A stretch of DNA of 64,000 bases, from contig DATKDP010000016.1 of the NCBI GenBank assembly GCA_035546335.1, positions 135,380 through 199,379 of the forward strand, given 5' to 3'. Positions 10,253 to 39,870 of this stretch are shown here, in pieces (position 1 is the first letter of the stretch; every line of letters begins with the position of its first letter). Source of the DNA: Thermoanaerobaculia bacterium. Its GTDB lineage: Bacteria > Acidobacteriota > Thermoanaerobaculia > Gp7-AA8. A model generated the notes under the pieces. The model did no database searches. It was not told the DNA's origin and saw only the letters and a list, made by a program, of their open reading frames with translations. Both the position numbers and the translations under genes were made by a program.

Positions 10253-10283
10253 GGTTTCAATGGGCCCCGAAGTTTGGTGAGCA

Positions 10284-11444: not shown

Positions 11445-12583
11445 TGATGAACGGGCGGAAGATCCTCGAGGGTGACCTCGCCGCTCTGCAGCTTCCCGAC
11501 GTCCTCAGTTTCATTGCGATGATCCGCAAGAGCGGGAAGATGGTCCTGCAGCAGGGATCGCTCGAGCGGACCATTCACTGGAAGGACGGCGAGGTAGCAT
11601 TCGCCACTTCCAATTCACCCGAGCATTCCCTCGGACTCTTTCTTCTTCGAAACGGAAAGATCACTCAGGAGCAGTATGAGGAATCACGGGAGCGAATGAC
11701 TCCGCAGACGCGGCATGGAAAGCTGCTGGTACAGATGGGGGTGATCTCACCGAAGGATCTCTGGTGGGCGGTCAAGAATCAGGTTCTGGAGATCATCTAT
11801 TCGATGTTCACCTGGCGCGACGGGTCGTTCGTCTTTCTCGACGAGGTCGAAGAGATCAGCCAGGAACGAATCATTCTCTCGATCAATCCATCCGTCGTCA
11901 TCATGGAGGGGGTGAGGAGAGTCGATGAAGAGGCGAGAATCCGCGAAAAGATCACCAGTCTGGATATGATCTTCGTCCGCCTGCCCGGGGCCGAGCCGAT
12001 CCTTCCCGACTTCGACATCACGCACGAGGAGGTGCGCCTGTTTCACGAGATCGACGGACATCGCTCGATTCGAGACCTGATCGGCTCGACCGATCTGACC
12101 GAGTTCGAAGTGACACGGATCCTTTTCCAGCTCATCTCCGCGCGTCTGATCGAGCCGGTCTCGCCGGAGAAAAGCGGAAGGCCCGTATTTCTCGATGTCG
12201 AGGACTCACCGGAACTGCTCAAGATCGTTTCCACCTACAACGACATGTTCGATCGTCTCTACGCGACTCTTCAGTCCGCGGTCGGCGAAGAGCGAGCACG
12301 CGAGATCTTCACCAACGTGCTGCAGAGCTCCGATACCGACGAGCTCTGGTCGGGAGTGTTTTTCGACCCTTCCGGGCGGTTCGACGAGAACATGCTGATC
12401 GCCAACATCTCCGAGCTTCCGTTCGAGAAGAGAAAGTCGGTTCTCGACGAAGGGTTGAATACTCTTCTGTCGATTCAGCTCTTCGAGGTGTCGCAGCATC
12501 TCGACGCTGCGACCAAGGTGCAGGTGTTTCGATTCATCTCCGATCAGAAAGCTCAGATCGAGAAAGCGACTGCCGAGTTTTGA
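11444..12583 (+). CDS. DUF4388-domain protein, hypothetical
   Basis: N-terminal GDLAALQLPDVLSFIAMIRKSGKMVL motif typical of DUF4388. Start overlaps the stop of the desulfurase (TGATGATG). Confidence 0.55.
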   Translation: MMNGRKILEGDLAALQLPDVLSFIAMIRKSGKMVLQQGSLERTIHWKDGEVAFATSNSPEHSLGLFLLRNGKITQEQYEESRERMTPQTRHGKLLVQMGVISPKDLWWAVKNQVLEIIYSMFTWRDGSFVFLDEVEEISQERIILSINPSVVIMEGVRRVDEEARIREKITSLDMIFVRLPGAEPILPDFDITHEEVRLFHEIDGHRSIRDLIGSTDLTEFEVTRILFQLISARLIEPVSPEKSGRPVFLDVEDSPELLKIVSTYNDMFDRLYATLQSAVGEERAREIFTNVLQSSDTDELWSGVFFDPSGRFDENMLIANISELPFEKRKSVLDEGLNTLLSIQLFEVSQHLDAATKVQVFRFISDQKAQIEKATAEF

Positions 12584-18554: not shown

Positions 18555-18717
18555 CTGGCCGAAGTCCCGAAGGGACGATTGAAAATAGCCCGGGACGAAG
18601 TCCCGGGTAGGGTAGCGCACAAGACACGAAGACCGCCAGTCCCGTAGGGACGGTTGACCGCCCGGGATGATGTCGCCGATTCGCCAGGGGCGGGCGCGGG
18701 ACGCCCGCTCTCCCCTG
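18555..18717. repeat. Three roughly 35-bp tandem units (GAAGTCCCGnAGGGAC cores) followed by a copy of dispersed hairpin module M2 (18686-18717)
   Basis: gaagtcccgaagggacg / gaagtcccgggtagggt / cagtcccgtagggacgg, then GGGGCGGGCGCGGGACGCCCGCTCTCCCC. Confidence 0.55.
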
Positions 18718-22789: not shown

Positions 22790-23570
22790 GGCGCTTCAAC
22801 AAGGCATCCTCGAGGAGATGAGACTCTGGACTCCGGAGAAGGGAACGCCACAAGGCGCGGTGATCAGCCCGTTGCTGGCGAATCTCTATTTGCACCCTGT
22901 CGACGTGGAAATGCGCGAGGCGGGGCTCCGAATGATTCGCTATGCAGACGACATGGTCATCCTGTGCGGGAGTCGCGAAGAGGCGGAACACGCACTGACC
23001 AAGCTCCGAAGCGCCCTCGAAGCGAAGCAACTCACGCTCCACCCGGTCAAGACGAAGCTCGTCGATGCGACGCTACGGCTAGGATTCCAGTTTCTCGGAT
23101 ACGACTTCTTCGGAGGACGACGGTATCCGCGCGAGCCGAGTGAACGGAAACTGCGCGAGCAGATCCGGAAACGAACTCGCAGGAATCGATCCGACAATCT
23201 GAAGACGATCATCGAAGATCTCAACAAGGTACTTCGAGGATGGTTCGCGTATTTCAAGCACCCTCACGCCGGGCGTTCGAAGGTCTCGACGGCTACATTC
23301 GCTACCGGCTCAGAGCCATTCTGAGCAAGCGAAGCCGACGCGGCCGGAAACGACGCCGTGGGCGTGGAAAGGACCATTTCCGCTGGCCCAACGCCTACTT
23401 CCGTGCGCAAGGTCTCTTCTTCCTTCACGAGAACCATCTGCGCGCCCTACGGTCCCATGCAGGGTGAACCACCAACTGGAGAGCCGGATGCGGGGAGATC
23501 CGCCAGTCCGGTTCGGAGGGAGGGGGAGGCCGGGAGGCCTCTCCCTCCCCCTATCTCGGGGCCGCCCGCT
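22790..23570 (+). mobile_element. Group II intron remnant: 5'-truncated, frameshifted RT/maturase ORF plus RNA domain V (23481-23514)
   Basis: RT motifs GTPQGAVISPLLANLYL, IRYADDMVILC, thumb/X LRGWFAYFKH. After a frameshift near 23265 comes LDGYIRYRLRAILSKR ... RWPNAYFRAQGLFFL, the maturase C-terminus. Domain V GAGCCGGATGCGGGGAGATCCGCCAGTCCGGTTC. RT domains 0-3 and RNA domains I-III are missing. Confidence 0.7.
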
Positions 23571-26437: not shown

Positions 26438-27441
26438 CAGCGCGCGGAGCGACGATGGCGTTTCCCGAGCACATCGCAGCCGTTCTCGAACAGTACGCGG
26501 TTCGCTCCGACACGAAGGCGGCGCTCCACGACCTCTACGTCTCGCTCGGGGGCGTCGTTCTCGAATGCTTTGCCGATCTGGCGGAGAAGATCACCGTTCC
26601 CGCGATGCTCACTCCGGAGGATACTCTGGGCATCGTCCCGATGGCGATCGAGCGCTATCTTCGCAGGAATCATCCCCTCTGGGCGAACGATCAGCCCACC
26701 CCGGGCTTCTGGTTCCCGCGCGATCTCGGAGGACGGGCTTCGGGGATGGCGGTTCCGGCGGGAGTGCTCGGCGGGGATCAGCGAAGTGAGCTGACGAGCC
26801 TCCTGGAGACGACGGTGCGAAGGATCGTCGGAGAGAGCCAGCCGATCGGCGAAGGCCTGCTGATCGTCGGCCGCAACGCGCATTTCGGAGGGCGCCCGGA
26901 GACGATCTCGTTCGACGTCGTCGCTCGCGATCTCGACGATGCGATCGCGGTCGGACTGGCAGCGGGTCGCCAGCATACGATTCCCGGCTCGGTAGGGGAG
27001 ACGAGCGGGAGCATCGACATGAGATTCGGTGTGGCGCTTCTGTGGGAAGTGCAGCCGAACGTGCTCAAGCCGGCAGGAGCGCGGAATCGCGCGATCAGCG
27101 GCTTCTACCGGCGGCATCGAAACTGGCACATCACCACGCTGACGGCAGGGTTGCTGTGGCTGAGACAGCGCGAGATCACGACCTTCATTCTGCGGGGAGA
27201 GGCGCTCGTGCCGACGCATCAGGTCAACCCCGAGCAGCCGATCGGAGCGGAGATCGTTCGCCATCACAACCGTACCGTTTCGAGGGTCGCGCGATCGCTC
27301 TCGATCGATCTCGCGGCGCCGAACGAGACCGAGGTGGAGACCTTGCTCGCGACCGAGGTGATGAACACGGCGCTGCGCGCGCATGTCGAATCGGGTCCGG
27401 CGCACGAGTTTTTGTGGCGCGTGCGGTGGCATGCGCCGTAG
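26434..27441 (+). CDS. Conserved hypothetical protein, translationally coupled to dusB
   Basis: ATGA overlap with the dusB stop. Non-repetitive 335-aa ORF with no recognisable motif. Confidence 0.4.
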   Translation: MTARGATMAFPEHIAAVLEQYAVRSDTKAALHDLYVSLGGVVLECFADLAEKITVPAMLTPEDTLGIVPMAIERYLRRNHPLWANDQPTPGFWFPRDLGGRASGMAVPAGVLGGDQRSELTSLLETTVRRIVGESQPIGEGLLIVGRNAHFGGRPETISFDVVARDLDDAIAVGLAAGRQHTIPGSVGETSGSIDMRFGVALLWEVQPNVLKPAGARNRAISGFYRRHRNWHITTLTAGLLWLRQREITTFILRGEALVPTHQVNPEQPIGAEIVRHHNRTVSRVARSLSIDLAAPNETEVETLLATEVMNTALRAHVESGPAHEFLWRVRWHAP

Positions 27442-27454
27442 CGGCGCTTTTGCT

Positions 27455-27665
27455 GTGGGGAGAGCGGGCGTCCCGCGCCCGCCCCCGTGCGGCGGAACAG
27501 CCTTTGCGTTTCGGAAACTGGTTTAGGCGGACGGCAAAGGGGCGGGCGCGGGACGCCCGCTCTCCCTCGCGCAAATGCTTCGTCCCTACGAGGGATGAAG
27601 TGGGCTTGGTTGCATCGTCGCGGGTGCGACAGGGGCGGGCGCGGGACGCCCGCTCTCCAGGGGGC
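27455..27665. repeat. Dispersed repeat cluster: M2 (reverse) ... M2 + 3' part of M1 ... M2
   Basis: ggagagcgggcgtcccgcgcccgcccc (27462-27492). ggggcgggcgcgggacgcccgctctcc immediately followed by ctcgcgcaaatgcttcgtccctacgagg (27538-27594). ggggcgggcgcgggacgcccgctctcc (27631-27660). Confidence 0.8.
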
Positions 27666-27740
27666 AGAATAGGAGTCCGGTTGCGCCTGTTACTCGATGC
27701 CGTGACGCAAACTGCGGAGAAGACGAGCCTCCGGGTCGGG

Positions 27741-29060
27741 ATGATCTCGCTCGGCTGCCCGAAGAATCTCGTCGATGCCGAGATCATGCTCGGACAGCTG
27801 CGCGAAGAGGCCGCGGTCGAGCTGACGCACGAGCTCGACGAGGCCGATGTCGTCATCGTCAACACCTGCGGCTTCATCGATGCAGCGAAACAGGAATCGA
27901 TCGACACGATTCTCGAGGTCGCCGAGCGAAAAAAATCTTCCCCCACACGCCTCGTCGTGACCGGCTGCATGGTGCAGAAGTACCGGACGGAGCTGGCGGA
28001 GTCGATTCCGGAGATCGATGCGTTCGTCGGACTCGATCATCTCGAGAAAATCACCTCCGCCGTCACCGGGGCCGACGTCTGCGATGCGGCGCCCGTCCGG
28101 CGCAAGATGTCGGTGCGGCTCTACGAAGACCTTCCCCGCGTGCTCACGCAGGGAGTCTCGCACGGCTATCTCAAGGTCTCGGAAGGATGCTCGAATCCGT
28201 GCACCTTCTGCGCGATCCCGCAGATGCGCGGCAAGTTTCGCAGCCGCTCGATCGACTCGCTGGTGCGCGAGGCGCAGCAGCTGGAGCGGCAGGGGGTGAT
28301 GGAGCTCTGTCTCGTCGCTCAGGACACGACGCGTTACGGCGAGGACCTCGGTGTGGCGAATGGGTTGACGAGCCTGATCGAGAGACTGCTGGGCGAGACC
28401 GATTTCCGCTGGATCCGCTTTCTCTACGCCTATCCCGGGAGCATCGACTGGAGTCTGTTCGAGCTGATGGGACGCGAGCCCCGCTTCGTCTCCTATTGTG
28501 ACATTCCGCTCCAGCACGTGAGCGAGCGTGTTCTGCGCACGATGCGGCGCCCCGGCTCTCCGGAGGAGTACCGCAAGATGATCGGGCGCATGCGCGATCT
28601 GGTTCCCGACATCTCGCTCCGGACGACGTTCATCACCGGGCATCCCGGCGAGACGCCGAGCGATTTCGGTCAGCTCCACGACTTCGTCGCCTGGGCGGAG
28701 TTCGATCAGATGGGGGCTTTCTGCTATTCGCCGGAGGACCACACTCCCGCCGGCCGAATGACGGACATCCCATCGCGCAGAACCGCCGAGCGGCGTCGCG
28801 CAAAGCTCATGGAGCTGCAGCAGCAGATCTCGTTCGCGAGAAATCAGGCGAAAGTCGGTACGACACTCGATGCGATCATCACCGGCGTCTGCTCCGAGAC
28901 CGAGCACCTTCTCGAGGGGCGCCTCATCGGCCAGGCTCCGGAGATCGACGGGCGCCTTCTCGTCAACGACGGCATCGAGCGGATCGCATCGATGCCCGCA
29001 TTCGCGCGGGTCGAGATCACGGATGCCCATCCGTACGACTTGGTCGGCGGGGTGGTCTGA
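27741..29060 (+). CDS. rimO: Ribosomal protein S12 methylthiotransferase (RimO; MiaB-family radical SAM with TRAM domain)
   Basis: MTTase N-domain (GCPKN ... VVIVNTCGFI). Radical SAM CSNPCTFC. C-terminal TRAM. Start taken at ATG 27741; the track's longer 27042 start runs through repeat DNA. Confidence 0.85.
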   Translation: MISLGCPKNLVDAEIMLGQLREEAAVELTHELDEADVVIVNTCGFIDAAKQESIDTILEVAERKKSSPTRLVVTGCMVQKYRTELAESIPEIDAFVGLDHLEKITSAVTGADVCDAAPVRRKMSVRLYEDLPRVLTQGVSHGYLKVSEGCSNPCTFCAIPQMRGKFRSRSIDSLVREAQQLERQGVMELCLVAQDTTRYGEDLGVANGLTSLIERLLGETDFRWIRFLYAYPGSIDWSLFELMGREPRFVSYCDIPLQHVSERVLRTMRRPGSPEEYRKMIGRMRDLVPDISLRTTFITGHPGETPSDFGQLHDFVAWAEFDQMGAFCYSPEDHTPAGRMTDIPSRRTAERRRAKLMELQQQISFARNQAKVGTTLDAIITGVCSETEHLLEGRLIGQAPEIDGRLLVNDGIERIASMPAFARVEITDAHPYDLVGGVV

Positions 29061-29116: not shown

Positions 29117-32100
29117 TCAGAAAATGACTTTCAGTGCCAGCTGATACTGGCGAGGATCGCCGGTGTAGGAGTTGGTCTTTCCGAAGTTCGCGTTCCGCGT
29201 GAACGTCCAACGATCCTGAGAAGAGCTGAACGATCCGAGGAAGAGGGAGCGGTTGGCACCCGGGACGAATTCGTTCTTCGTGTTCAGGACGTTGAAAATC
29301 TCGCCGATCAGCTCGAGCTCGAAGTTCCTGATCACGGGGAAGCGCTTCGCGATGCGCATGTCGAGCATCGAGAAGTCGGGCTGATCGTGCCTGTTGCGCT
29401 CTTCCATCGTGGCTCCCTGCAGGAAGGCGGAGAGACCGGCTCGGGACAGGCCCGTCGCCGCCGTCAGGTCGATCACATTGCCGCTGCTGTCGACGAAGAC
29501 CGGGGTGAAGACGCCGATTCCTCCGAGGCCGTTACCGAGGCCGCTGACCGTTCGGGTGAAGGGGATGCCGCTTCTCCAGTTGTAGATTCCCGAGATCAGA
29601 ATCCCCAGGGGAGCTTCGTAGGTGCCGCTGAGCACGACCTTGTGCGTCACGTCGTAGTCGGCTCGTCCTTCGTTCAGCTTCGCGTTGAAGGGATCGAGTG
29701 TGAAGGCGCTCGAGGTCGACCGTTCATTCGAATCCTGGTCGATGGCCTCGGACCAGGTGTAGTGAGCGAGCCAGCTGTACTTGCTGCCGCCGGTGGCCAG
29801 CTTCTTCGTCGAGAGCGTCACTGCCTTGTAGTCGCCTTCCGCATCGCTCCGATGCTCGGTGACGTCGGTGAAGCGGGTGTAGGGGCGGGCGGGATTGTTG
29901 TTCGAGTAGACGACCAGGTCGCCGTAGCGGAGTCCGGTCGGTACTGCGTTGATGTTGATCATGCGCTGCTGCTTGTCGAGCTTGGCGTACGACCCTTCGA
30001 GGCTGACGCTGTATGACGTGCCGATCTGCTGCTCGTAGCCGAGGCTGGTGCGGGTGCTCTCCATCGCCTCGAGGTCTTTGGAAACGGTACGTATCGTCGC
30101 CGAGGTGCGCGCGGCGGCTTCGAATTCTGCTCGCCCGAGAACGCCCGGGTAGACCGGGCAGAGCGTCGAGGTCGTGCAGTTGATGTCGACCTGGCTGAAG
30201 AGTCCGCCGATCTGGCCGAGGGGGTCGGCGAAGAGAATCGATGGAATGTAGTTGTAGTACAGACCGGCGCCGCCGCGAAGGACGGAGCTTCCGGTGCCGA
30301 ACAGATCGTAGGCGAAGCCGAGGCGCGGAGCCCAGTTGTCCTTGTCACGCTGGAAGTTCGTGAGGAACTCGGGGAATTCGGGCGCGACGTTCCGGATCGG
30401 TTTCGGGACTGTCTGCGTGTCGTAGCGGAGCCCGACGTCGAGAGTCAGCTGCGAGGAGAGGCGCATCGAGTTCTGGATGAAAGCGCCGTAGTAGGTGTAG
30501 TCGAAGCGGTTGTTGCCCCTCTCGATGCCGACGGGCCCGAGGCCCTGGCGGAAGCGGCTGGGAGTGTTGGAGACGAAGTTCGCGGCATTCGAGAAATCCC
30601 AGTTTCCGGCGAAGTTGCGCGGGAAGAGGTTGTCGAGCTTCGTCTCGATGATCTCGAAGCCGGTCTTGATGTGATGGTCGCCCATGAGGAGCGAGAAGTT
30701 CTCCTTCAACTGACGGCGATCCTCGATGAGGTCGTTCGGAAGGAAATCGGACTGCCCGAAGGCGAGATTGATTCCGCCGATGAATGTGCGCGGCACTGCG
30801 GTCGAGAGCGGATCGCGCGGCCGCTCTTCCTTGCTCACCTGGAGAATGATCTGGTTGAACATCGACGGGGTGAGAACCGACTCGGCCTGGAGGACGGCGC
30901 TGTTGAAGTCGTTCTTGAACACCCCCTGATTGGAGCGGAGCGCGTTCACGCCTTCGCTTCCGAAGTTCTCGAACGTGGAATAGTTGTCGCGGAAGGAGAG
31001 ATGATGGTTCGAAGCGAGATTCGCGTCGAGCTTGATGAGATAGACCTGCTGATCCTCGGTCGTCGTGAAGCGGAACTCGTCGGCGATCGGGTTGCCGACC
31101 AGCGATTCCACACGAGCGATCGTTGCTGCCCGCGTCGCCTCCGGAAGGGCGAGAAAGGCCGTGTTCTGCCGCACGTCATTGAGGACGACTGCGCGGGAGA
31201 AATCCTGAAGGTCGGCGTTGATGAAGAAATGGACGCGATCCTGGACGATCGGGCCGCCGAGGGCGAACCCGTACTGCGCGATGTCCTTCGGATCGAACGA
31301 GTCGCTGACGTTCAGTCCATCGATGACCCTCGGCCGGCTCGAGGCCCAGTCGGCGTCGCGCTTGTAGTAGAAGCCCTGCCCTTTGATCTCGTTGGTTCCA
31401 CTCTTGGTGATCGCGTTGAGCGTCGCGCCGACGCCTTTGGCGTACTCGGCGCTGTAGGCCGAGCGAATCACCTGGAACTCCTGGATCGCCGCCTGGCTGA
31501 AGGTGTAGGGTGCGCGCGTGCCGCCTCGCTGCTCCCCGAAAAAGTCGGAGTTGGCATCGGCGCCATCGATGTTGTAGTCGGTCGAGACTCCGCGCGCTCC
31601 GTTCGCCGCCACGCGCTCGCCGAACGTGGTGACCACGCCGGGTGTGAGAAGTGCCAGGTCGCGGAAGTCGCGTCCGAGGATTGGCAGCGATTCGATCTGG
31701 AACTCGGTGACCGCCGCCGTCAGATCGGACTGGGTGGTGTCGACCAGCGGTGCCGACGCAGTGACGGTGATCTCCTGGGCGAGCTGCGGTGTGATCCGCA
31801 GGTTGATGGTCGAGGCCGTGCCGAGGAGCACGGTCACCCGGTCGTTTCTCGCCTCGCCGAAGCCGGCCAGTTCTGCGTGGACCCGGTAGCTGCCGGGGCG
31901 GAGAAGCGAAACGAGGTATTCGCCGTTCGAATCGGTCACCGCGGAGCGGGTCGATCCGGTTTCGGTGTTGGTCACGGTCACCGTCACGCCGGGAAGTGGC
32001 GTGCCGTCGTCGCCGGCGATGGTGCCGCGAATCTGTCCGGTCGTTGCCCCGGTCTGACCAAAGACCACGGTCGTCGCCAGAGCGATGCACATCACAAACA

Positions 32101-32125
32101 AAATCGGTTTTCGCAATCGAGACAT
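29117..32125 (-). CDS. TonB-dependent outer-membrane receptor with N-terminal carboxypeptidase-regulatory-like domain
   Basis: Signal peptide, then CarboxypepD_reg (GTIAGDDGTPLPGVTVTVTNTETGSTRSAVTDSNGEY). Plug and 22-strand barrel length. C-terminal aromatic residue. Start at ATG 32125 (MSRLRKPILF). Confidence 0.8.
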   Translation of the reverse strand: MSRLRKPILFVMCIALATTVVFGQTGATTGQIRGTIAGDDGTPLPGVTVTVTNTETGSTRSAVTDSNGEYLVSLLRPGSYRVHAELAGFGEARNDRVTVLLGTASTINLRITPQLAQEITVTASAPLVDTTQSDLTAAVTEFQIESLPILGRDFRDLALLTPGVVTTFGERVAANGARGVSTDYNIDGADANSDFFGEQRGGTRAPYTFSQAAIQEFQVIRSAYSAEYAKGVGATLNAITKSGTNEIKGQGFYYKRDADWASSRPRVIDGLNVSDSFDPKDIAQYGFALGGPIVQDRVHFFINADLQDFSRAVVLNDVRQNTAFLALPEATRAATIARVESLVGNPIADEFRFTTTEDQQVYLIKLDANLASNHHLSFRDNYSTFENFGSEGVNALRSNQGVFKNDFNSAVLQAESVLTPSMFNQIILQVSKEERPRDPLSTAVPRTFIGGINLAFGQSDFLPNDLIEDRRQLKENFSLLMGDHHIKTGFEIIETKLDNLFPRNFAGNWDFSNAANFVSNTPSRFRQGLGPVGIERGNNRFDYTYYGAFIQNSMRLSSQLTLDVGLRYDTQTVPKPIRNVAPEFPEFLTNFQRDKDNWAPRLGFAYDLFGTGSSVLRGGAGLYYNYIPSILFADPLGQIGGLFSQVDINCTTSTLCPVYPGVLGRAEFEAAARTSATIRTVSKDLEAMESTRTSLGYEQQIGTSYSVSLEGSYAKLDKQQRMININAVPTGLRYGDLVVYSNNNPARPYTRFTDVTEHRSDAEGDYKAVTLSTKKLATGGSKYSWLAHYTWSEAIDQDSNERSTSSAFTLDPFNAKLNEGRADYDVTHKVVLSGTYEAPLGILISGIYNWRSGIPFTRTVSGLGNGLGGIGVFTPVFVDSSGNVIDLTAATGLSRAGLSAFLQGATMEERNRHDQPDFSMLDMRIAKRFPVIRNFELELIGEIFNVLNTKNEFVPGANRSLFLGSFSSSQDRWTFTRNANFGKTNSYTGDPRQYQLALKVIF

Positions 32126-32357: not shown

Positions 32358-33695
32358 TCAGAAGCTGTTGAGGAAGGCCTGATTCGTCGGGAACTTCTGC
32401 AATCGCTCGAGGAGCATCTTCATCGCGGTCATCGGATCGGTCCCGGCCAGAGCCCGTCTCAACGTGTGAATTTTCGGTAACGTCGTCGCCGACAGCAGCT
32501 TTTCCTCTTTTCGCGTCCCGGTCTGTGCGATGTTGATCGCAGGGAAGATGCGCCGCTCGAAGAGTCCGCGATCGAGCACGATCTCCGTGTTCCCGGTTCC
32601 TTTGAACTCCTGGAAGATGACCTCGTCCATTCTGGAGCCGGTGTCCACCAGCGCCGTGGCGATGATGGTCAAAGAGCCCCAGTCTTCGGCGTTGCGCGCG
32701 GCACCGAAGAAGCGGCGCGGCTTCTCCATGGTTCTCGCATCGATTCCGCCGGAGAGGATCTTCCCGCTGCCCCGCTGCTCGTTGTTGTAGGCTCGCGACA
32801 TTCTGGTGATGGAATCACAGAGGATGACCACATCCTTCTTCATCTCCACCAGACGCCGGGCGCGCTCGAGCACCACCTCGGCGATGGTGATGTGATTCTC
32901 CGCCGTTTCGTCCGAGCTCGAGGCGATCACATCTCCCTTCTCGACCGAGCGGCGGAAGTCGGTGACCTCCTCGGGACGCTCGTCGACGAGAAGTACGATC
33001 AGTGTGACTTCGGGATGATTGGTATTGATCCCGTGCGCGATGTCCTTCAGCAGCGTCGTCTTTCCCGTTTTCGGCGCGGCGACGATGAGACAGCGCTGGC
33101 CTTTCCCGATCGGCGAGAGCAGATCGATCACTCTCGTGGTCAGGCGATTCGGCTCGGTCTCGAGCTTGAACATCTCGCTCGGATCGACCGAGATCAGCTC
33201 GGAAAACGGCCGGCGCGCCTCGCGGAACTCCTCGAGCGGCATGCCTTCCACCTGGTCGATTGCCGTCAGCTCGAGTGCGCCGTTGTTCGTTCTGCGCGCC
33301 GTTCCTTCGAGCAGCAGTCCGCCCTGCAGAAAAAGCTTGTCGATCAGCGCGCGCGGGACGAGAGGGTCGCTTGCCTGCGGCACGTAATTGTTCGAGCTGC
33401 GAACCAGCATGCCGCTGCCGTTCGGCTTGATGAAGAGGACGCCGCTCGCGGGTGCGGGCTCGCCTGCCGGCTGGCTCGAGCCCCCTGCCTGCTGTTGTTC
33501 TGCGCGCGGCTCCCCGCGCGAGCGTCCACGCCGCCGGGACCGCCGCTTCCGGCCGCCGCCGTCGCTTCGTGGCTCTGCTCCCTCCCCGGGCATCGGAACT
33601 CCGTTCGAGCCGGTTGCGGACGGCTGAGAAGCCGAGGGCTGTGGCCGCCGCCTGCGGCGACGCCGTTTGCGTGGGTTGCGATTTTCAGGAGTCAT
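32358..33695 (-). CDS. rho: Transcription termination factor Rho with an Arg-rich N-terminal extension
   Basis: Walker A AAPKTGKTTLL. Q/R loops. C-terminal Rho signature IATALVDTGSRMDEVIFQEFKGTGN. Confidence 0.9.
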   Translation of the reverse strand: MTPENRNPRKRRRRRRRPQPSASQPSATGSNGVPMPGEGAEPRSDGGGRKRRSRRRGRSRGEPRAEQQQAGGSSQPAGEPAPASGVLFIKPNGSGMLVRSSNNYVPQASDPLVPRALIDKLFLQGGLLLEGTARRTNNGALELTAIDQVEGMPLEEFREARRPFSELISVDPSEMFKLETEPNRLTTRVIDLLSPIGKGQRCLIVAAPKTGKTTLLKDIAHGINTNHPEVTLIVLLVDERPEEVTDFRRSVEKGDVIASSSDETAENHITIAEVVLERARRLVEMKKDVVILCDSITRMSRAYNNEQRGSGKILSGGIDARTMEKPRRFFGAARNAEDWGSLTIIATALVDTGSRMDEVIFQEFKGTGNTEIVLDRGLFERRIFPAINIAQTGTRKEEKLLSATTLPKIHTLRRALAGTDPMTAMKMLLERLQKFPTNQAFLNSF

Positions 33696-34069
33696 GCAAT
33701 GTCATCAATAACGGCTGCTCGCCTCTCGACGTACCAGAAAGCTGATTTCGAAAAGCTCGGGGCGGAGAGTAACGTTCTCAACGCCTGGCGGAGCGCCTTC
33801 GCCAAGATCATGCACGAGGTGCGGCCGGTAGTATAGCGGAACAGGGAGTACTGATTGCAAGTGGCAAGTTGGCTTTGCGGTTTTGCACCGGCCGTGCGCC
33901 CGCGCGGGTGAATGGCGCCGCGTCCGCAGCCGCGAGTGACCCGATCGGGCCGATTGATGCTCGCGACGAGCTCGATCGTGCCGAAATCGGGCTCGCGGAA
34001 GGCCTGTTCGTTGACGCCTTTCCGAGCACTGTGTGAAAATGCAGGGACTTGCTGAATACGAATATCCCC

Positions 34070-36913
34070 ATGCGCGAAGAGATTCTCGTGGTCGAGTACG
34101 AGCCGCGGTATACGGAGCGGGTCAAGCAGGCCCTGTCGGGTCAGCAGCTTTCGCCCTTGTTCGCGAAGGACGGCGAGGAAGCCATGCTCGCACTCGAGAG
34201 CGGTCACCCGCGCCTGATCGTTCTCTCCTCGGTCGTTCCCCGCGTGAGCACCACGGAACTGATCCGGCGCATCCGAAGTCACTCGCTTCACCGCGACACG
34301 CCGATTCTTCTCACCATGTCGGGATACACAGGGCAATCTCCGAGCTCCGATGCCGCGCGGATCGGCGCATCCGACATTCTCGCAAAGCCGTACTCGGAGG
34401 TCGAATTCCTGGCAAAAGTCAGGACGATCCTCGGGCTCCCAGGCGCGGCCGCTCCGGCGGACGAGCCTGAGACGTTGATCATTCCATCCCCTCTGCGCGC
34501 GGCTCGGGCGCCGCAGCCGGACGAGGGGGACGCGACGCTCACCTCCGGCGACATTTTCGGCGAGGTTCTGGCCGACCAGAAGACGGTTCCACAGCCTTCG
34601 CGAAGGGCGTCGGCAAGAATGTCGAGCGACGATCTCGACAAGATGCTCGCCGACACGCTTTCCGGGGTCCGTCCCACGCCGGCGCGGAGAAAGCCGGCGG
34701 AAGCATCATCGCCGGAACCGAAACCGGAACCGAAGTCGAGGGGAGGGATGAGCGACATCGACCGGTTGCTCGAGGATACCCTTTCGGGACTGGAGAAGAC
34801 GGTTCGAATGAAGGTGCCCTCGGTCGAGCCGCCCGCAGCAGCGCAGTCGGCCGCACCTCCGCCAGCGGCCGCACCCCGTTCCACCGCGGTTCCACCTCCC
34901 GCCCCTCCGCCGTTCGAGCCATCGACTGCCGGGAAGGTCTCGATCTCGTCGCCGGTGCTGCCGCCGGAGCATGCCGAGCCGCTCATGGAGAAGGAAGACA
35001 CCGCGGCCGAGAGCGATGGAGCTCGTTTCGGGCAGTACGTGCTCCTCGATCGGATCGCGACGGGCGGCATGGCCGAGGTGTGGAAGGCCCGGATGCGCGG
35101 AGTCGAAGGATTCCAGAAGATCGTCGCCATCAAGAAGATCCTTCCGCACCTTTCGGACAACGAAGAATTCGTGACGATGTTCGTCGACGAGGCGAAGCTC
35201 GCCGCACAGTTGAACCACAACAACATCATTCACATCTATGACCTCGGCCGCATCGCGAGCTCCTACTACATCGCGATGGAATACATCGACGGTCATGATC
35301 TGAAAACGATCCTGAAGAAGGGGGAGGAGCGCGGGCTGCCGATTCCGCTCGAGCTCGCGATCTTCATCGCATCGAAAGTCGCGGCGGCGCTCGACTATGC
35401 ACATCGCCGGCGCGATTTCAACGAGAAGGAGCTGGAGCTCGTTCATCGCGACGTCTCGCCGCAGAACGTTTTGATCTCTCACGAGGGCGACATCAAGCTG
35501 TGCGATTTCGGCATCGCCAAAGCCGCCTCGAAGGCCTCTCACACCCACGCAGGCTCGTTGAAAGGGAAGCTGCAGTACATGTCTCCGGAGCAGGCGTGGG
35601 GCCGGCGCATCGATCGCCGTTCCGATCTGTTCGCACTCGCCACGGTCCTGTTCGAGATGCTGGCGGGAAGAAAACTTTTCAGCGGCGAGAACGAGCTCTC
35701 CATTCTCGACGAAGTGCGCGAAGCTCGCGTCGTCGCTCCCTCGTCGATCAACGACGAGGTGCCGCCGTCGGTCGATGCCATCGTTCTCAAGGCGCTGGAG
35801 AAGGAGCCCGACAATCGCTACCAGTCCGCAGGAGAGATGGCGCGCGATCTCGATGCGGTGCTCTACGGCTTCCGTCCGACACCGACCAGCGCCGATCTCG
35901 CAATCTACATGCATCGTCTCTACAGTGCGGAAGCGGCGCACTTCGCGCCGGTCTCTCCTCTTCCGGCGCCGTTCGAGGATCAGGACGACGGGGCTTTCTC
36001 GATCGAGCCCGCCACGGTCATCCAGCGTCCAAGGCCCGCAATTCCTCACCCGGCCGTGTCAGAGCAGACGATCGAAGAGCCGTTCGCCATCGCGCCGCCC
36101 CAACCGGCGAAAAAGAAACGTTCTCTCGCGCTCGTCGCCGTCGCGCTCGTCGTCGTGGCGGGCCTCGCCACCGGAGGATACCTCGTCATGCGACCGAGCG
36201 AGCCGGCAGCGCAGCAGACTGTGGCGCCGCGTGTCGCCGCTGCGGCTCCTGCTGCTGCTCCCTCCGCCGCCTCCGACACTTCGGCAGCGCCCATGGACGT
36301 CATGGACCCGGCCGTTGCACCCCTCCCCCAGGTCGGATCGGCACTCCCGCCGACCGATCAGGCGCGAGTCGATGAAGAGGTTCGCCGCCGCCTCGATGCG
36401 GAGCGCCAGCGACTCGAACAGCAGAAGACCCAGATTCTCACAGCCGATCGAGCGCGGCAGCAGCAGGCCGCGCCCCCCGAAACCGTGGCGGCTGCGGTTC
36501 CATCCGTAGTCCCGAGTGCGACGACGAGAGAGCCCGAGCCTCCACCTCCGGCGGTTTCGACCGCGCAGCAGGCAGCGGCGGTACCGCCGCCCTCGGAGCC
36601 GGCGCGAACGACGGTGCGTGAGGGAGAGTTGGTCGAGCAGGGAACCGAAGGACTGCTGCCACCGGAGGTCATCGAACAATTCAGGCCTCCCTATCCCCCT
36701 CTGGCCCGTTCGCAAAGGGTCGAGGGCGTGGTGATCGTTTCGGCATTGATCTCCGAAACGGGTCAGGTTCTCGAGACGCGCATTCTGCGAGGGATACCCC
36801 TATTGAATGATGCGGCGCTCCAGGCGGTGCGCCGATCGAAGTTCCGTCCCGGCACGAAAGATGGCGTCCGTGTGAAAGCCTACAAGACGATGACCGTTCC
36901 ATTTAGACTGTAG
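34070..36913 (+). CDS. Multidomain signalling protein: pseudo-receiver (REC-like), Pro/Ala-rich linker, Ser/Thr protein kinase-like domain, TM helix, Pro-rich periplasmic linker, C-terminal TonB_C domain
   Basis: REC-like fold with D-to-S at the phospho-acceptor (LIVLSSVVP) and EY instead of DD. Kinase motifs GGMAEVW, VAIKK, HRDVSPQN, DFG, SPEQ. TM ALVAVALVVVAGLATGGYLV. TonB_C motif PPYPPLARSQRVEGVVIVSALISETGQVLETRILRGIPLLNDAALQAVRRSKFRPG. First ATG at 34070; the track's 34049 is a TTG. Confidence 0.75.
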   Translation: MREEILVVEYEPRYTERVKQALSGQQLSPLFAKDGEEAMLALESGHPRLIVLSSVVPRVSTTELIRRIRSHSLHRDTPILLTMSGYTGQSPSSDAARIGASDILAKPYSEVEFLAKVRTILGLPGAAAPADEPETLIIPSPLRAARAPQPDEGDATLTSGDIFGEVLADQKTVPQPSRRASARMSSDDLDKMLADTLSGVRPTPARRKPAEASSPEPKPEPKSRGGMSDIDRLLEDTLSGLEKTVRMKVPSVEPPAAAQSAAPPPAAAPRSTAVPPPAPPPFEPSTAGKVSISSPVLPPEHAEPLMEKEDTAAESDGARFGQYVLLDRIATGGMAEVWKARMRGVEGFQKIVAIKKILPHLSDNEEFVTMFVDEAKLAAQLNHNNIIHIYDLGRIASSYYIAMEYIDGHDLKTILKKGEERGLPIPLELAIFIASKVAAALDYAHRRRDFNEKELELVHRDVSPQNVLISHEGDIKLCDFGIAKAASKASHTHAGSLKGKLQYMSPEQAWGRRIDRRSDLFALATVLFEMLAGRKLFSGENELSILDEVREARVVAPSSINDEVPPSVDAIVLKALEKEPDNRYQSAGEMARDLDAVLYGFRPTPTSADLAIYMHRLYSAEAAHFAPVSPLPAPFEDQDDGAFSIEPATVIQRPRPAIPHPAVSEQTIEEPFAIAPPQPAKKKRSLALVAVALVVVAGLATGGYLVMRPSEPAAQQTVAPRVAAAAPAAAPSAASDTSAAPMDVMDPAVAPLPQVGSALPPTDQARVDEEVRRRLDAERQRLEQQKTQILTADRARQQQAAPPETVAAAVPSVVPSATTREPEPPPPAVSTAQQAAAVPPPSEPARTTVREGELVEQGTEGLLPPEVIEQFRPPYPPLARSQRVEGVVIVSALISETGQVLETRILRGIPLLNDAALQAVRRSKFRPGTKDGVRVKAYKTMTVPFRL

Positions 36914-36917
36914 CTCC

Positions 36918-36957
36918 CAGAATCGCAGAATCGCAGAATCGCAGAATCGCAGAATCG
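36918..36957. repeat. Perfect microsatellite (CAGAATCG)x5
   Basis: cagaatcg repeated five times head-to-tail between the kinase stop (36913) and the RBS/ATG of the next small ORF (36978). Confidence 0.9.
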
Positions 36958-36977
36958 CGAAAGCGGAGGTCAGACAC

Positions 36978-37205
36978 ATGCCGATTCTTACCGACCAGCA
37001 GCGCAAATTCTATGAAACAACCCTGCAGGTGACGAGGCAGGAGATCGGCGATCTGAAGGATCAGATCGAAGAGGAGCTGGCGAAGGTCAAGGATCGTATT
37101 GCGGAATTGCAGAATGCGATCAACGCCTCCAAACAGATGTACGAGGCGGCATGCAATCGTCTCGGCATCCCCAACGATCTCGATGACGAGGGTGAAGGCT
37201 CCTGA
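36978..37205 (+). CDS. Small coiled-coil protein (75 aa), hypothetical
   Basis: GGAGG 8 nt upstream of the ATG. Heptad-like QEIGDLKDQIEEELAKVKDRIAELQNAI. Ends 7 nt before btuF-like gene. Confidence 0.4.
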   Translation: MPILTDQQRKFYETTLQVTRQEIGDLKDQIEEELAKVKDRIAELQNAINASKQMYEAACNRLGIPNDLDDEGEGS

Positions 37206-37211
37206 CGCCTG

Positions 37212-38111
37212 ATGGCGAAGCGTTCACGACCACTCCTCCATTTCGCGTCGCTGTTTCTGCTCGTCTCCGCCTGTGACCGGCCGGGGGGGCTCGTCACTGA
37301 CGACCTCGGGCGCCGGCTCGCGATCCCGCAGCGCATCGATCGCATCGTCACCCTCGCCCCCAACGTCACGGAGATCGTCGCTTTTGTCGACAAGCAGCAT
37401 CTTCTCGTCGGCGCGGACACCTTTTCGAATTTTCCGCCGGAGATCCGCTCGTTGCCGAAAGTCGGCGGAGTATCGCCCAGCGTCGAGCGCATCGTCGAGC
37501 TGCGGCCCGATCTCGTGCTCGCATCGTCGAGCGTCGATCCTGCGGCGCTCGGCAGAGCTCTGGAGTCGGCCGGAATCCCTCTGTTCGCCGTGAGAACCGA
37601 CCGCCTCGCCGACATCTCGCGTGCGATCGATCGCGTCGAAGATCTTCTCGGTACTTCGAAAGGTGAGCACAGCAGACGGCTCACCAGGGCGATCGAGAGC
37701 GAGAGAAGAAGCCGGCCACGCCCTCCGATGATTCTCTTTCTGGCATCGGTGAATCCGCTCTATGTGGCGGGAAGAGCGACCTACATCGACGATCTGATCA
37801 CCTTGACCGGCGGAGCCAATGCCGTTGCCGCTCACGTGACGGGGTGGCCCCAATACTCTCTCGAAGCGCTGATCGCGAGCCAGCCGGAAATCATTCTTCA
37901 CCCTGCGTCACTTCTTTCCGGGGACGAGCGCGAGCGGCTGTTGCAGGCCGATCCGCGCTGGCGCGAGCTCGAAGCGGTACGCCTCGGTTCCTGGTTCGCC
38001 GTGGACGATGACATCTTCACCCGACCCGGCCCCCGCGTCGCGGCCGCTGCCGGGCAGTTGAATGGCATCCTCGATCGATGGGAAGCTGGACAATCAGACC
38101 GGTCTCGTTGA
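37212..38111 (+). CDS. ABC transporter periplasmic substrate-binding lipoprotein (BtuF / Fe-siderophore class)
   Basis: Lipobox LLVSAC. Class III SBP pattern (RIVTLAPNVTEIV ... LRPDLVLAS). Confidence 0.7.
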   Translation: MAKRSRPLLHFASLFLLVSACDRPGGLVTDDLGRRLAIPQRIDRIVTLAPNVTEIVAFVDKQHLLVGADTFSNFPPEIRSLPKVGGVSPSVERIVELRPDLVLASSSVDPAALGRALESAGIPLFAVRTDRLADISRAIDRVEDLLGTSKGEHSRRLTRAIESERRSRPRPPMILFLASVNPLYVAGRATYIDDLITLTGGANAVAAHVTGWPQYSLEALIASQPEIILHPASLLSGDERERLLQADPRWRELEAVRLGSWFAVDDDIFTRPGPRVAAAAGQLNGILDRWEAGQSDRSR

Positions 38112-39073
38112 GTCGCGAGACGGTCATCGGTGCACTCGTGCTCGGCGGCATTCTGCTGGGCGTGATGATTCTCTCGATGTTCTTCGGAGCCGTCGATCTC
38201 GGTCCGCGCGCCGTCTGGTCGGGCGATCACGTGGCGCGAACCATCCTGCTGCAGATCCGCCTGCCACGCGTTCTGCTCGCGGCACTGGTCGGAGCGATTC
38301 TCGCCGGAGCAGGCGCCACCTTCCAGACGATGCTTCGGAATCCTCTCGCCGATCCATTCATTCTCGGTGTCTCGGGCGGGGCCGCATGCGGTGCTGCGAT
38401 CGCCAGCGCCTTCCGGCTGGCCCGCTATCCGGGCGTTGTTCCGGCTTTCGCATTCGCGGGCGCCTGCCTGGCGATCGCGGTCGTTCTCGCCCTTTCCAGA
38501 CGTCACGGCACCTCGGATCCGGTGCGACTCCTGCTGGCCGGTCTCGTGCTCAATGCCTTCTTCTCGGCGCTGATCCTGCTGGCGCTGGCGCTCACTGCGG
38601 GGAGCGATCTGACCTCCGCGCTGCGGTGGATGATGGGAAGTCTCGCCGGAGCCGTATGGACCGACGTCCGGCTCCTCTCGATTGCCTTCGTCGTTTCCTT
38701 CGCGCTGCTGGTGACGGTGGCTGGCGATCTTCGCATGCTCGATTTCGGCGAGGACGACGCGCGCTCTCGGGGAGTCCCCCTCGAGCGAGTGCGCCTCACC
38801 GCGTTCCTCGCGGCCTCGCTCGCGACCGGAGCGGCGGTCGCGGTGAGCGGGATCATCGGGTTCGTCGGGCTTCTCGTACCGCACGCCATCCGGCTGGTGC
38901 TGCCGCGAGACTATCGTCTTCTTCTGCCTCTCTCGGTGCTGGGGGGCGCGACGCTGCTGGTCGCTTCGGATACTCTGGCGCGCGTGATGGTCGCGCCGGC
39001 AGAGCTGCCGATCGGTGCGGTCACGGCATTTCTCGGAGTGCCGTTTTTCCTGATTCTTCTTCGCAGGTCATGA
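38078..39073 (+). CDS. ABC transporter permease, FecCD/BtuC family
   Basis: Ten predicted TM segments. FecCD signature region LAGLVLNAFFSALI ... GIIGFVGLLVPH. A start at TTG 38108 is also possible. Confidence 0.8.
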   Translation: MGSWTIRPVSLSRETVIGALVLGGILLGVMILSMFFGAVDLGPRAVWSGDHVARTILLQIRLPRVLLAALVGAILAGAGATFQTMLRNPLADPFILGVSGGAACGAAIASAFRLARYPGVVPAFAFAGACLAIAVVLALSRRHGTSDPVRLLLAGLVLNAFFSALILLALALTAGSDLTSALRWMMGSLAGAVWTDVRLLSIAFVVSFALLVTVAGDLRMLDFGEDDARSRGVPLERVRLTAFLAASLATGAAVAVSGIIGFVGLLVPHAIRLVLPRDYRLLLPLSVLGGATLLVASDTLARVMVAPAELPIGAVTAFLGVPFFLILLRRS

Positions 39074-39870
39074 GTCTGATCGAGCTCGACGCGGTCGACT
39101 TTCACTATCGGGATGGCGTTTCCGCCGTTCGCGGGCTGAGTTCGCGGTTCGATGAAGGGGAGCTCGTCGCCATCATCGGGCCGAATGGTGCGGGAAAGTC
39201 GACCCTTCTCAAGCTGATTGCACGCGTCATCGCCCCCCAGGGGGGCGAGATCCGTTTCCGGGGGATCAGGATCGGGGAGATTGCTCCACGGGCGTATGCG
39301 CGGGAGGTTGGGTATCTGCCGCAGGAGCAGGAGAGCGTGTTCCCGATGAGGGCGCTCGAAGTGGTGGCGAGTGGCCGTGCTCCCTTTCTCCGGCGGTTCC
39401 AATGGGAATCGGAAGGCGATTACGAGCTGGCGCGCAGAGCGCTCGCCGATTGCGATGCTCTCCATCTCGCCGATCGATATCTCGACGAGATGAGCGGAGG
39501 AGAGCGGAAACGGATCTTCCTCGCGCGCGTTCTCTGCGGCGATCCGAAGCTCATTCTGCTCGACGAGCCGCTGACGGCGCTCGACGTTTCCCATACGCAG
39601 ACGTTCATCTCGCTGATTCGCCGGATCGTCGATCAGACGGGGAAGGCAGTGCTCTTCGTCTCGCACGACTTGAACTGGAGCGCGGCCTACGCCGACCGGA
39701 TGATGGTGATGAATGCGGGCTCGGTCGTCCTCGATGCCGGCCCGGCGGAGGTGATGCAGCCCGAGGTCATGAAACGCCATTTCGGATTCGATGCGCTGGC
39801 GGTTCGATCGGATGGGGAAGGGGGCGTGGCGTGGATCGTGCCCGACGCCGGGCGCCATAAACCTCGATGA
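39070..39870 (+). CDS. ABC transporter ATP-binding protein (BtuD/FecE-like)
   Basis: Walker A GPNGAGKST. ABC signature LSGGERKR. Walker B ILLLDEP. H-loop SHD. ATG overlaps the permease stop. Confidence 0.85.
   Translation: MSLIELDAVDFHYRDGVSAVRGLSSRFDEGELVAIIGPNGAGKSTLLKLIARVIAPQGGEIRFRGIRIGEIAPRAYAREVGYLPQEQESVFPMRALEVVASGRAPFLRRFQWESEGDYELARRALADCDALHLADRYLDEMSGGERKRIFLARVLCGDPKLILLDEPLTALDVSHTQTFISLIRRIVDQTGKAVLFVSHDLNWSAAYADRMMVMNAGSVVLDAGPAEVMQPEVMKRHFGFDALAVRSDGEGGVAWIVPDAGRHKPR

Follow-up and report, generated by a model that had tools for sequence, protein, structure and literature searches.

We analysed a 64,000-nt stretch of a Thermoanaerobaculia (Acidobacteriota) contig (DATKDP010000016.1, positions 135,380 to 199,379; hereafter the window), in which one plus-strand gene encodes a protein that joins a receiver-like domain, a Hanks-type Ser/Thr kinase, a single transmembrane (TM) helix and a TonB C-terminal (TonB_C) domain (Table 1). 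Across this part of the window the genes follow one another as a MiaB-like gene (plus strand), a gene for a TonB-dependent transporter (TBDT; minus strand), rho (minus strand), the kinase gene, a small gene, and genes for a Peripla_BP_2 binding protein, a FecCD permease, an ABC ATPase and a RelA/SpoT protein, the last six all on the plus strand. The reading frame of the kinase gene opens with a TTG codon at 34049 and ends at 36913; the ATG at 34070, which gives a protein of 947 residues, encodes the Met that is the start shared with the orthologues in our alignment. A promoter match lies 30 nt ahead of this ATG, inside the 375-nt divergent gap to rho. An initial annotation, made from the sequence of the window, had described a pseudo-receiver, a Hanks kinase, one TM helix and a periplasmic TonB_C domain for the interval 34070-36913; all four parts are found at exactly those coordinates, and the three families for which it had proposed profile searches (Pkinase, TonB_C and Response_reg) score above their Pfam cut-offs.

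Table 1. Features of the kinase gene and the genes that follow it, in coordinates of the window (aa, residues of the encoded protein).
Feature	Position	Strand	Basis and remarks
Sigma-70-like promoter match (TTGACG, 18-nt spacer, TG, GAAAAT)	34011..34040	+	Consensus match only
Kinase gene, 947-aa receiver-like / Hanks kinase / TM / TonB_C protein	34070..36913	+	NCBI HVT43153.1, named 'TonB family protein'
Pseudo-receiver domain, aa 5-117	34082..34420	+	Pfam Response_reg (PF00072), 39.3 bits, cut-off 30.2
Disordered cytoplasmic linker with three conserved short motifs, aa 122-320	34433..35029	+	Orthologue column counts, predicted structure
Hanks-type Ser/Thr kinase domain, aa 324-585	35039..35824	+	Pfam Pkinase (PF00069), 139.3 bits, cut-off 31.7, E=1.9e-40
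Post-kinase juxtamembrane segment FRPTPTSADLAIYMHRLY, aa 601-618	35870..35923	+	Conserved in orthologues
Single TM helix, aa ~686-707, preceded by KKKR, N-terminus inside	36125..36190	+	Hydropathy scan
Periplasmic spacer, Ala/Pro/Thr-rich, aa 708-864	36191..36661	+	Composition, alignment
TonB_C domain, aa 873-947, and stop codon	36686..36913	+	Pfam TonB_C (PF03544), 58.5 bits, cut-off 24.6, E=9e-16
Perfect 8-bp tandem repeat (CAGAATCG) x 5.1	36918..36958	+	0 matches expected by chance
Gene for 75-aa acidic-tailed single-helix protein	36978..37205	+	NCBI HVT43154.1, 'hypothetical protein'; GGAGG at 36965-36969, 8 nt upstream
Lipoprotein-type Peripla_BP_2 binding protein, BtuF/heme-binding class	37212..38111	+	Pfam; ATG 6 nt past the small-gene stop
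FecCD/BtuC-type permease	38078..39073	+	NCBIfam BtuC, E=1.1e-77, under equivalog cut-off; Pfam FecCD in orthologous loci
Importer ABC ATPase	39070..39870	+	Pfam ABC_tran; nearest NCBIfam model heme ABC ATPase, 3.9e-61, under cut-off

Orthologues of the kinase occur in at least 80 species-level genomes of Thermoanaerobaculia and Holophagae, at 36-64% identity. Furthermore, a database search gave at least 120 proteins that share all four Pfam families and 50-66% identity; they go by the names "TonB family protein" or "eukaryotic-like serine/threonine-protein kinase", and all come from metagenome-assembled genomes of Thermoanaerobaculia/Acidobacteriota. We took 80 loci, all from metagenome-assembled genomes, out of contigs of one genome per species (more such loci exist), called and clustered the genes in all 80, and aligned the 70 full-length orthologues that they yielded; residue counts given below as fractions of 70 refer to this alignment. 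Predicted structures and their predicted local distance difference test (pLDDT) values are from AlphaFold2, and the full-length model of the kinase was read within its domains only.

The N-terminal domain is predicted to adopt a (beta-alpha)5 layout (pLDDT 84-95) and lacks both the phospho-acceptor Asp and the Mg-binding acidic pair of a receiver. The acceptor position, residue 53, is Ser in 50/70 and Thr in 15/70 orthologues and Asp in 0/70, and the second acidic position, residue 10, where a receiver has a Mg-binding Asp, is Tyr in 65/70. The domain is therefore a pseudo-receiver, unable to take phosphate on Asp, in line with the pseudo-receiver of the initial annotation. The linker that follows was modelled with low confidence apart from short helices at residues 188-196 and 231-235, and contains three conserved motifs, [DE][IL]F[GS][DE]xL at residues 161-167 and DxDKxLxDTL[SA]G twice, at residues 188-200 and 229-241. 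Its best-kept columns include F163 (66/70), T196 (58/70), L197 (69/70), D231 (66/70), T237 (66/70) and L238 (67/70). The DTLSG part of these motifs resembles the start of the E. coli TonB box (DTLVVTA), and we considered it as a self-ligand of the TonB_C domain; this candidate was dropped because the motifs are predicted to be cytoplasmic and the TonB_C domain periplasmic, in opposite compartments.

The Hanks domain is predicted to be catalytically active, and not a pseudokinase, because every catalytic residue is invariant in the orthologues. The Gly-rich loop, the VAIK Lys, the alpha-C Glu, the HRD Asp, the catalytic-loop Asn, the DFG Asp, the SPE Glu and the subdomain XI Arg are all intact, and G332, G333, K355, E374, H459, R460, D461, N466, D479, F480, G481, E507, D519 and R583 are each found in 70/70 sequences. 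Earlier wording called this domain 'kinase-like', a qualifier that falls away for a domain with a complete catalytic set. Two residues of the activation loop, H491 and T492, were invariant in 45 sequences. The best NCBIfam match, PknB_PASTA_kin, covers residues 322-733 with 299.8 bits, under its cut-off of 450. Between the kinase domain and the membrane, the juxtamembrane segment has invariant residues at P603, P605, A608, D609, A611, I612 and R616 and at least 90% conservation at T604 and S607, with a predicted helix at 607-618.

A hydropathy scan found a single peak above 1.8 in 65/70 orthologues, a second peak in 4 and none in 1. Because the only TM helix, at residues ~686-707, is preceded by KKKR, the 685 N-terminal residues are predicted to be cytoplasmic and the last 240 periplasmic, and we tentatively regard the gene product as a bitopic inner-membrane receptor Ser/Thr kinase. 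The periplasmic spacer is proline-rich, as in TonB, with 20% Ala, 19.5% Pro and 12% Thr; its length in the orthologues (121-184 residues, median 153) is comparable to that of TonB spacers and is predicted to suffice to span the periplasm. It contains a conserved charged helix at residues 764-797 (nt 36359-36460; pLDDT 60-82), in the region of which E770, V771 and R774 are invariant and conservation reaches at least 90% at D763 and E778. The TonB_C domain is intact: in addition to the Pfam match, NCBIfam TIGR01352 (tonB_Cterm) gives 43 bits against a cut-off of 27.1, the predicted structure has a strand-strand-helix-strand order (pLDDT 89-96), and matching sequences in the PDB are TonB2 2k9k (1.9e-5) and TonB 1u07, 2gsk_B and 6i97. 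Y875, P876, G886, V888 and G898 show no variation and N913 almost none, and the hallmark motif that the initial annotation had named (YP, the glycines, V888) is thus both present and conserved.

Since the succession of TM helix, Pro-rich spacer and TonB_C domain is also the layout of TonB, the protein might be a genuine TonB paralogue that is energised by ExbBD and whose activity the kinase and pseudo-receiver extension regulates or reports. The public annotation as 'TonB family protein' agrees with such a view, and an ExbB-ExbD-ExbD-TonB operon lies ~2 kb upstream in 7/53 loci. However, the N-terminal TM anchor with a conserved His (SHLS) that characterises TonB has no counterpart here: the TM helix sits behind the cytoplasmic domains, its sequence is poorly conserved, and His falls within it in 2/70 orthologues, one of which (L064) is a scan artefact, and therefore no SHLS-type motif exists. 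Moreover, each of the upstream operons carries a TonB of its own, a canonical 241-aa protein that has the expected TM His and whose TonB_C domain is 39-43% identical to that of the kinase; those genomes therefore already own a canonical TonB. Neither exbB nor exbD was found in the 64-kb window, and the genetic association expected of a TonB is thus missing there. We consider an energised paralogue very unlikely, and the independence from ExbBD that had been proposed for the kinase is plausible, with no TM His in 68/70 orthologues, unlike the 241-aa TonB of the clade.

The 298 nt that appear to separate the kinase stop from the ATG of the binding protein consist of the CAGAATCG repeat, which starts 5 nt past the kinase stop and falls within the 64-nt spacer before the small gene, a GGAGG sequence, and a 75-aa open reading frame. 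A riboswitch leader in this gap was rejected, with no Rfam match and a protein-coding gene in its place. The small gene lies directly 3' of the kinase gene in 74/74 loci with at least 350 nt of downstream sequence (tblastn, 48-90% identity), at a distance of 11-160 nt in most of them. Its gene calls agree with independent public gene calls, and a search begun with the small protein arrives again at the kinase gene. No gene but this one accompanies the kinase gene invariably, and the two form a conserved operon core. The importer at 37212-39870 on the plus strand had been placed correctly by the initial annotation but not 'immediately downstream', for the 75-aa gene occupies the space between.

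The small-protein family comprises ~3,584 members, 73-77 aa long. A Pfam search assigned it to no family and gave only sub-threshold coiled-coil noise, and the PDB likewise returned no relative, only keratin and other coiled-coil noise. A JGI label, 'ElaB/YqjD/DUF883', was set aside; it rests on similarity of the coiled-coil type, and a TM helix is lacking. The predicted structure is one helix at residues 6-62 (mean pLDDT 87.6) followed by the acidic tail. Invariant residues include Q8, Y12, E33, L34, V37, Q53, M54, A57, A58, C59, L62, G63 and N66, and all 38 close sequences and 13/15 diverse sequences have T19.

Downstream of this core, a binding protein, a FecCD permease and an ATPase are encoded in one operon whose genes overlap or abut, as in a type II importer. 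The binding protein scores below the cut-offs of the NCBIfam BtuF and IsdE models, and its best PDB matches are the B12-binding 5ysc (2e-18), BtuF 1n4a and the heme binders 2r79 and 2r7a; for the importer as a whole, all NCBIfam equivalog scores remain under cut-off and the solved structures that come closest bind B12 or heme. We followed the importer in the 58 loci whose sequence extends downstream by at least 3.5 kb. In 37/58, two or all three of its parts are encoded after the kinase gene on the same strand, and in 7 more only the binding protein is. The block of kinase gene, small gene and importer is kept in two lineages with differing flanks, which argues, on gene order, for more than passive synteny. 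The proposal that a Btu/Fec-type importer forms a unit with the kinase thus holds in part: it fits the shared strand, the 37/58 loci and the two lineages, and fails in 14/58 loci, in which no importer part is present.

The gene order could mean that the kinase recognises the loaded or the empty form of the co-encoded BtuF/HmuT-like lipoprotein with its periplasmic part, through either the TonB_C domain or the conserved helix, in which case it would report the periplasmic supply of corrinoid, heme or siderophore and may regulate the importer or metabolism. The order kinase gene, small gene, binding-protein gene is found in 44/58 loci, 7 of them without an adjacent permease and ATPase, and in the window the ATG of the binding protein follows the small-gene stop by 6 nt. 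No riboswitch or other Rfam element for the importer was found at gathering scores in the window or at E<=1 in 36700-37400, and neither a cobalamin riboswitch nor any other Rfam element was found in six related loci, which leaves room for control by a protein. An interaction of TonB with BtuF also has a precedent: a passage in PMC9853854, citing James et al. 2009, describes purified TonB and BtuF as interacting in solution/in vitro. However, 14/58 loci keep an intact kinase-TonB_C gene without an adjacent binding protein, and the equivalog scores, all below cut-off, point to no single substrate class. We hold it unlikely that the binding protein is the sole input of the kinase.

The TBDT gene upstream was the other partner put forward by the initial annotation, which gave its position correctly (29117-32125, ~2 kb upstream of the kinase gene), and took transporter, kinase and importer for one functional unit. 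In that scheme the adjacent TBDT in particular is the transporter whose TonB-box exposure the TonB_C domain reads, and the two, together with the importer, make up one uptake-signalling unit. The transporter has a signal peptide, a CarboxypepD_reg domain and a barrel, with a TonB-box-like EITVTAS after the N-terminal domain (the stretch after the CarboxypepD_reg domain reads QEITVTASAPLVD), and a TBDT occupies the same position in 17/53 loci with enough upstream sequence. The two genes, however, lie on opposite strands with rho between them, and a TBDT-like gene within 10 kb is found in 18/80 loci, all of the close lineage and in each case on the far side of rho and on the opposite strand; the remaining 62/80 have no TBDT-like sequence within that distance. 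Several close loci hold a TBDT of just 25-28% identity at that position. A search for an STN signalling domain on the neighbouring TBDT gave no match at E<=0.001, and only CarboxypepD_reg and barrel families were found; likewise, no FecR-type anti-sigma factor or extracytoplasmic-function (ECF) sigma factor occurs among the neighbours in the window (MiaB-like, rho, ABC importer, RelA/SpoT). Because of its restricted occurrence, its place behind rho and its low identity in several loci, the TBDT is, as far as gene order can tell, next to the kinase gene through common descent within one lineage rather than as a conserved partner. The proposed joint unit finds no support on these grounds, and specific reading of this transporter is the least probable of the explanations that we considered.

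More widely, the surroundings of the kinase gene differ between lineages. Close relatives share the order MiaB-like gene (forward), TBDT gene and rho (both reverse) and kinase gene (forward), with relA nearby in a few close-lineage loci. Among distant relatives (36-48% identity), yebC and ruvC are divergent from the kinase gene, beyond them lie either PatA_N/OmpA/AI-2E genes or an ExbB-ExbD-ExbD-TonB-PatA_N-TPR block, and accD, folC, a gene for an HD phosphohydrolase, rpiB and glyA are found downstream. These housekeeping surroundings (yebC-ruvC, accD, folC and glyA, or rho and miaB) would fit a general rather than a substrate-specific role of the kinase.

Neighbours of this kind also bear on the possibility that the kinase monitors the envelope or cell division, as a diderm functional analogue of the PASTA kinases, with a TonB_C domain that binds a Tol-Pal/OmpA-type partner in the manner of TolA and with the 75-aa protein as a small coiled-coil division or cytoskeletal factor that the kinase phosphorylates. 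The distant lineage has, after the divergent yebC-ruvC, either genes for ExbB/TolQ, two ExbD/TolR, a TonB_C protein, PatA_N and TPR proteins or PatA_N and OmpA genes, and FtsE/FtsX-like genes occur nearby. The small protein is predicted to be one long helix, like many coiled-coil proteins of division, and a member of another kinase-TonB_C family is encoded near a dcw-type cluster, ~4 kb away on its mraZ-rsmH-ftsL side. Against this, the Tol- and division-type neighbours belong to standard housekeeping clusters and do not occur in the lineage of the window, the small protein has no homology to any known division protein in Pfam and PDB searches, and the Pfam TolA model gives no match to the C-terminal domain. 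A role as division monitor is accordingly quite doubtful.

Some further features of these loci deserve mention in their own right. In one sub-lineage (L044, L054, L055, L057, L069, L076, L078, L079, L086 and L087), the divergent block yebC-ruvC-exbB-exbD-exbD-tonB(241 aa)-PatA_N-TPR lies ~1-6 kb upstream of the kinase gene, in an order that recalls the ruvC...tolQRA...cpoB arrangement of Proteobacteria; L086 combines this block with an importer downstream. One locus (L046) holds two kinase-family members ~7 kb apart, at 2-2314 (cut by the locus end) and 8996-12016, so that at least one genome seems to have a paralogue. In the window itself, rho (32358-33695, minus strand) has an Arg-rich low-complexity N-terminal extension (MTPENRNPRKRRRRRRRPQPSASQ...), and its Pfam Rho_RNA_bind match begins at residue 84. 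The MiaB-like radical-SAM gene (27042-29060, plus strand) has a longest reading frame of 672 aa with UPF0004 from residue 232, orthologous calls are 438-452 aa, and the true start is probably ~220 codons further in. Rfam searches also found a group II intron domain V-VI (RF00029) at 23479-23554 on the plus strand (52.6 bits, gathering score 40) and an Acido-Lenti-1 small RNA at 18563-18607 on the minus strand (50 bits, gathering score 37).

To place the fusion among other TonB_C proteins, we used just the TonB_C domain as query against 1.84 billion representative proteins. At E<=1e-3 there were 35,948 matching representatives, a good many of them with 2-6 tandem copies, and the top of the list is dominated by tandem-copy proteins with summed scores, so that it speaks to promiscuity and not to phylogeny. 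A Pfam scan of the 53 longest of the top 149 matches found 28 with a Peptidase_M56 domain (BlaR1-like) and 3 with Pkinase, namely one orthologue and two kinases without a receiver. Among the matches numbered P0241-P0389, many proteins have 2-6 tandem TonB_C domains and reach up to 2,103 aa, and more than half of the long ones have a BlaR1-type Peptidase_M56. The two receiver-less Acidobacteriota proteins (P0261, 724 aa, and P0386, 720 aa) have an N-terminal Hanks kinase and 2-3 tandem TonB_C domains; they are encoded at L083 8001-10175 (P0261/P0391) and L085 8001-10163 (P0386/P0406), one beside an M48 peptidase gene and the other beside genes for an ECF sigma factor and a second kinase (a kinase-TPR gene). 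Their kinase domains are 34-37% identical to that of the window kinase, and TonB_C is likewise their periplasmic module; neither a TBDT gene nor the 75-aa partner gene was found near either of them.

Because the domain is promiscuous, as the M56 fusions and the other kinase-TonB_C families indicate, TonB_C as the periplasmic module of predicted membrane signal transducers is a recurrent pattern in the databases. Full-text literature searches, whose coverage did not include the myxobacterial kinome, found no paper on a kinase-TonB_C fusion or on the four-domain family, and literature searches found no study of M56-TonB_C or receiver-less kinase-TonB_C fusions. TonB goes unmentioned for Xanthomonas PknS and in a survey of Planctomycetota kinases, as do kinases in a paper on the evolution of TolA and TonB. 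The claim that the architecture is 'not a described' one therefore survives for the literature and is overstated for the databases, where fusions of TonB_C to signalling domains are common (28/53 with Peptidase_M56, and the two receiver-less kinases). The four-domain family with its 75-aa partner is a distinct, class-wide instance of the pattern, a receptor Hanks kinase with an unstudied class of ectodomain.

Combined, these results lead us to favour, with some reserve, a model in which a receptor kinase docks through its TonB_C domain onto an envelope partner, be it a TonB box, the BtuF-like protein or both, without energy transduction. TonB_C would then be a docking or sensor module and not a force transducer energised by ExbBD. 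The spacer would let the domain reach the outer membrane and there pair, by beta-strand addition, with a TonB-box-type segment that ligand-loaded TBDTs in general, rather than specifically the neighbour, expose; the BtuF-like binding protein may be a further ligand. Contact with a partner would alter the oligomeric state or conformation of the kinase, possibly via the periplasmic helix, and so lead to autophosphorylation. The kinase would then phosphorylate cytoplasmic targets, for which the best candidates are the small helical protein, with its nearly invariant T19, and the kinase's own pseudo-receiver, with a Ser/Thr at the former Asp site.

Several points weigh against this model. No binding partner of the TonB_C domain was identified by the tests in this analysis, and neither candidate is encoded consistently beside the kinase: a TBDT-like gene is nearby in the 18/80 loci described above, and the importer is wholly absent from 14/58 loci, where accD or relA comes directly next and TonB_C is kept, so that an adjacent binding protein would be no obligatory ligand unless it is encoded elsewhere. 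Gene order across the loci could in part reflect shared descent and not function. The N-lobe of the kinase, like the TM helix, has low confidence in the full-length predicted structure. Finally, Asn can replace His20 in E. coli TonB, and the missing TM His does not strictly exclude coupling to ExbBD.

A bolder version of the model, which we judge rather unlikely, is that diderm Ser/Thr kinases of this family provide a trans-envelope route in which a non-energised TonB_C 'feeler' samples the loaded BtuF-like protein or TonB boxes that ligand-loaded outer-membrane transporters expose, and the kinase turns transporter occupancy into phosphorylation of a dedicated 75-aa effector and of the Ser/Thr of the pseudo-receiver. 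To our knowledge, Acidobacteriota have very large TBDT sets, and how the imports are sensed is largely unknown. If the docking model is true, a core, class-wide kinase with a domain that recognises TonB boxes could be a general sensor of the uptake status of the envelope, the use of TonB_C would extend from force transduction to signalling, and there would be a functional handle on unexplained TonB_C fusions, such as the M56 BlaR1-like proteins and the other kinases. Kinase gene and invariant 75-aa partner gene make a compact two-gene module, and the name "TonB family protein" hides an intact kinase and probably misstates its function.

The arrangement has partial counterparts in known systems. 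The protein resembles receptor Hanks kinases such as PknB and StkP with their PASTA domains, PknD, PpkA and Xanthomonas PknS in its cytoplasmic kinase, juxtamembrane segment and single TM helix, and in an extracytoplasmic domain presumed to control activation; for PknS, the periplasmic domain modulates activation of the kinase (PMC13147305). Unlike these kinases, it has a TonB_C ectodomain on a long Pro/Ala spacer in place of PASTA, a beta-propeller or vWA, it has a pseudo-receiver and a 200-aa motif-bearing linker ahead of the kinase, and it scores below the PknB equivalog cut-off. With TonB, HasB and TonB2 it shares the C-terminal domain, the single TM helix and a similarly long Pro-rich spacer; it departs from them in a TM helix that follows ~685 cytoplasmic residues, in the lack of the conserved His and in the lack of adjacent exbBD in the window. 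In Myxococcus, the TolA/TonB-like inner-membrane proteins GltG and GltJ are proposed to pull the TonB box of the outer-membrane GltA/B (PMC9946355), and by this description they too are a case of a TonB/TolA-type domain that contacts an outer-membrane partner, via a TonB-box-like segment, outside nutrient uptake; they differ in having a TolQR/ExbBD-like motor (AglRQS) and no kinase. The likeness to FecA-FecR-FecI and FpvA-FpvR-PvdS signalling is conceptual, in that a single-pass inner-membrane protein reaches across the periplasm to a transporter of the outer membrane and relays a signal into the cytoplasm. Unlike those systems, the locus has no STN domain on its TBDT, no FecR-like anti-sigma factor and no ECF sigma factor, and the adjacency of TBDT and kinase gene is not conserved; the output would be Ser/Thr phosphorylation. 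A kinase-based 'feeler' could run alongside the FecR/ECF-sigma system and be mechanistically unlike it.

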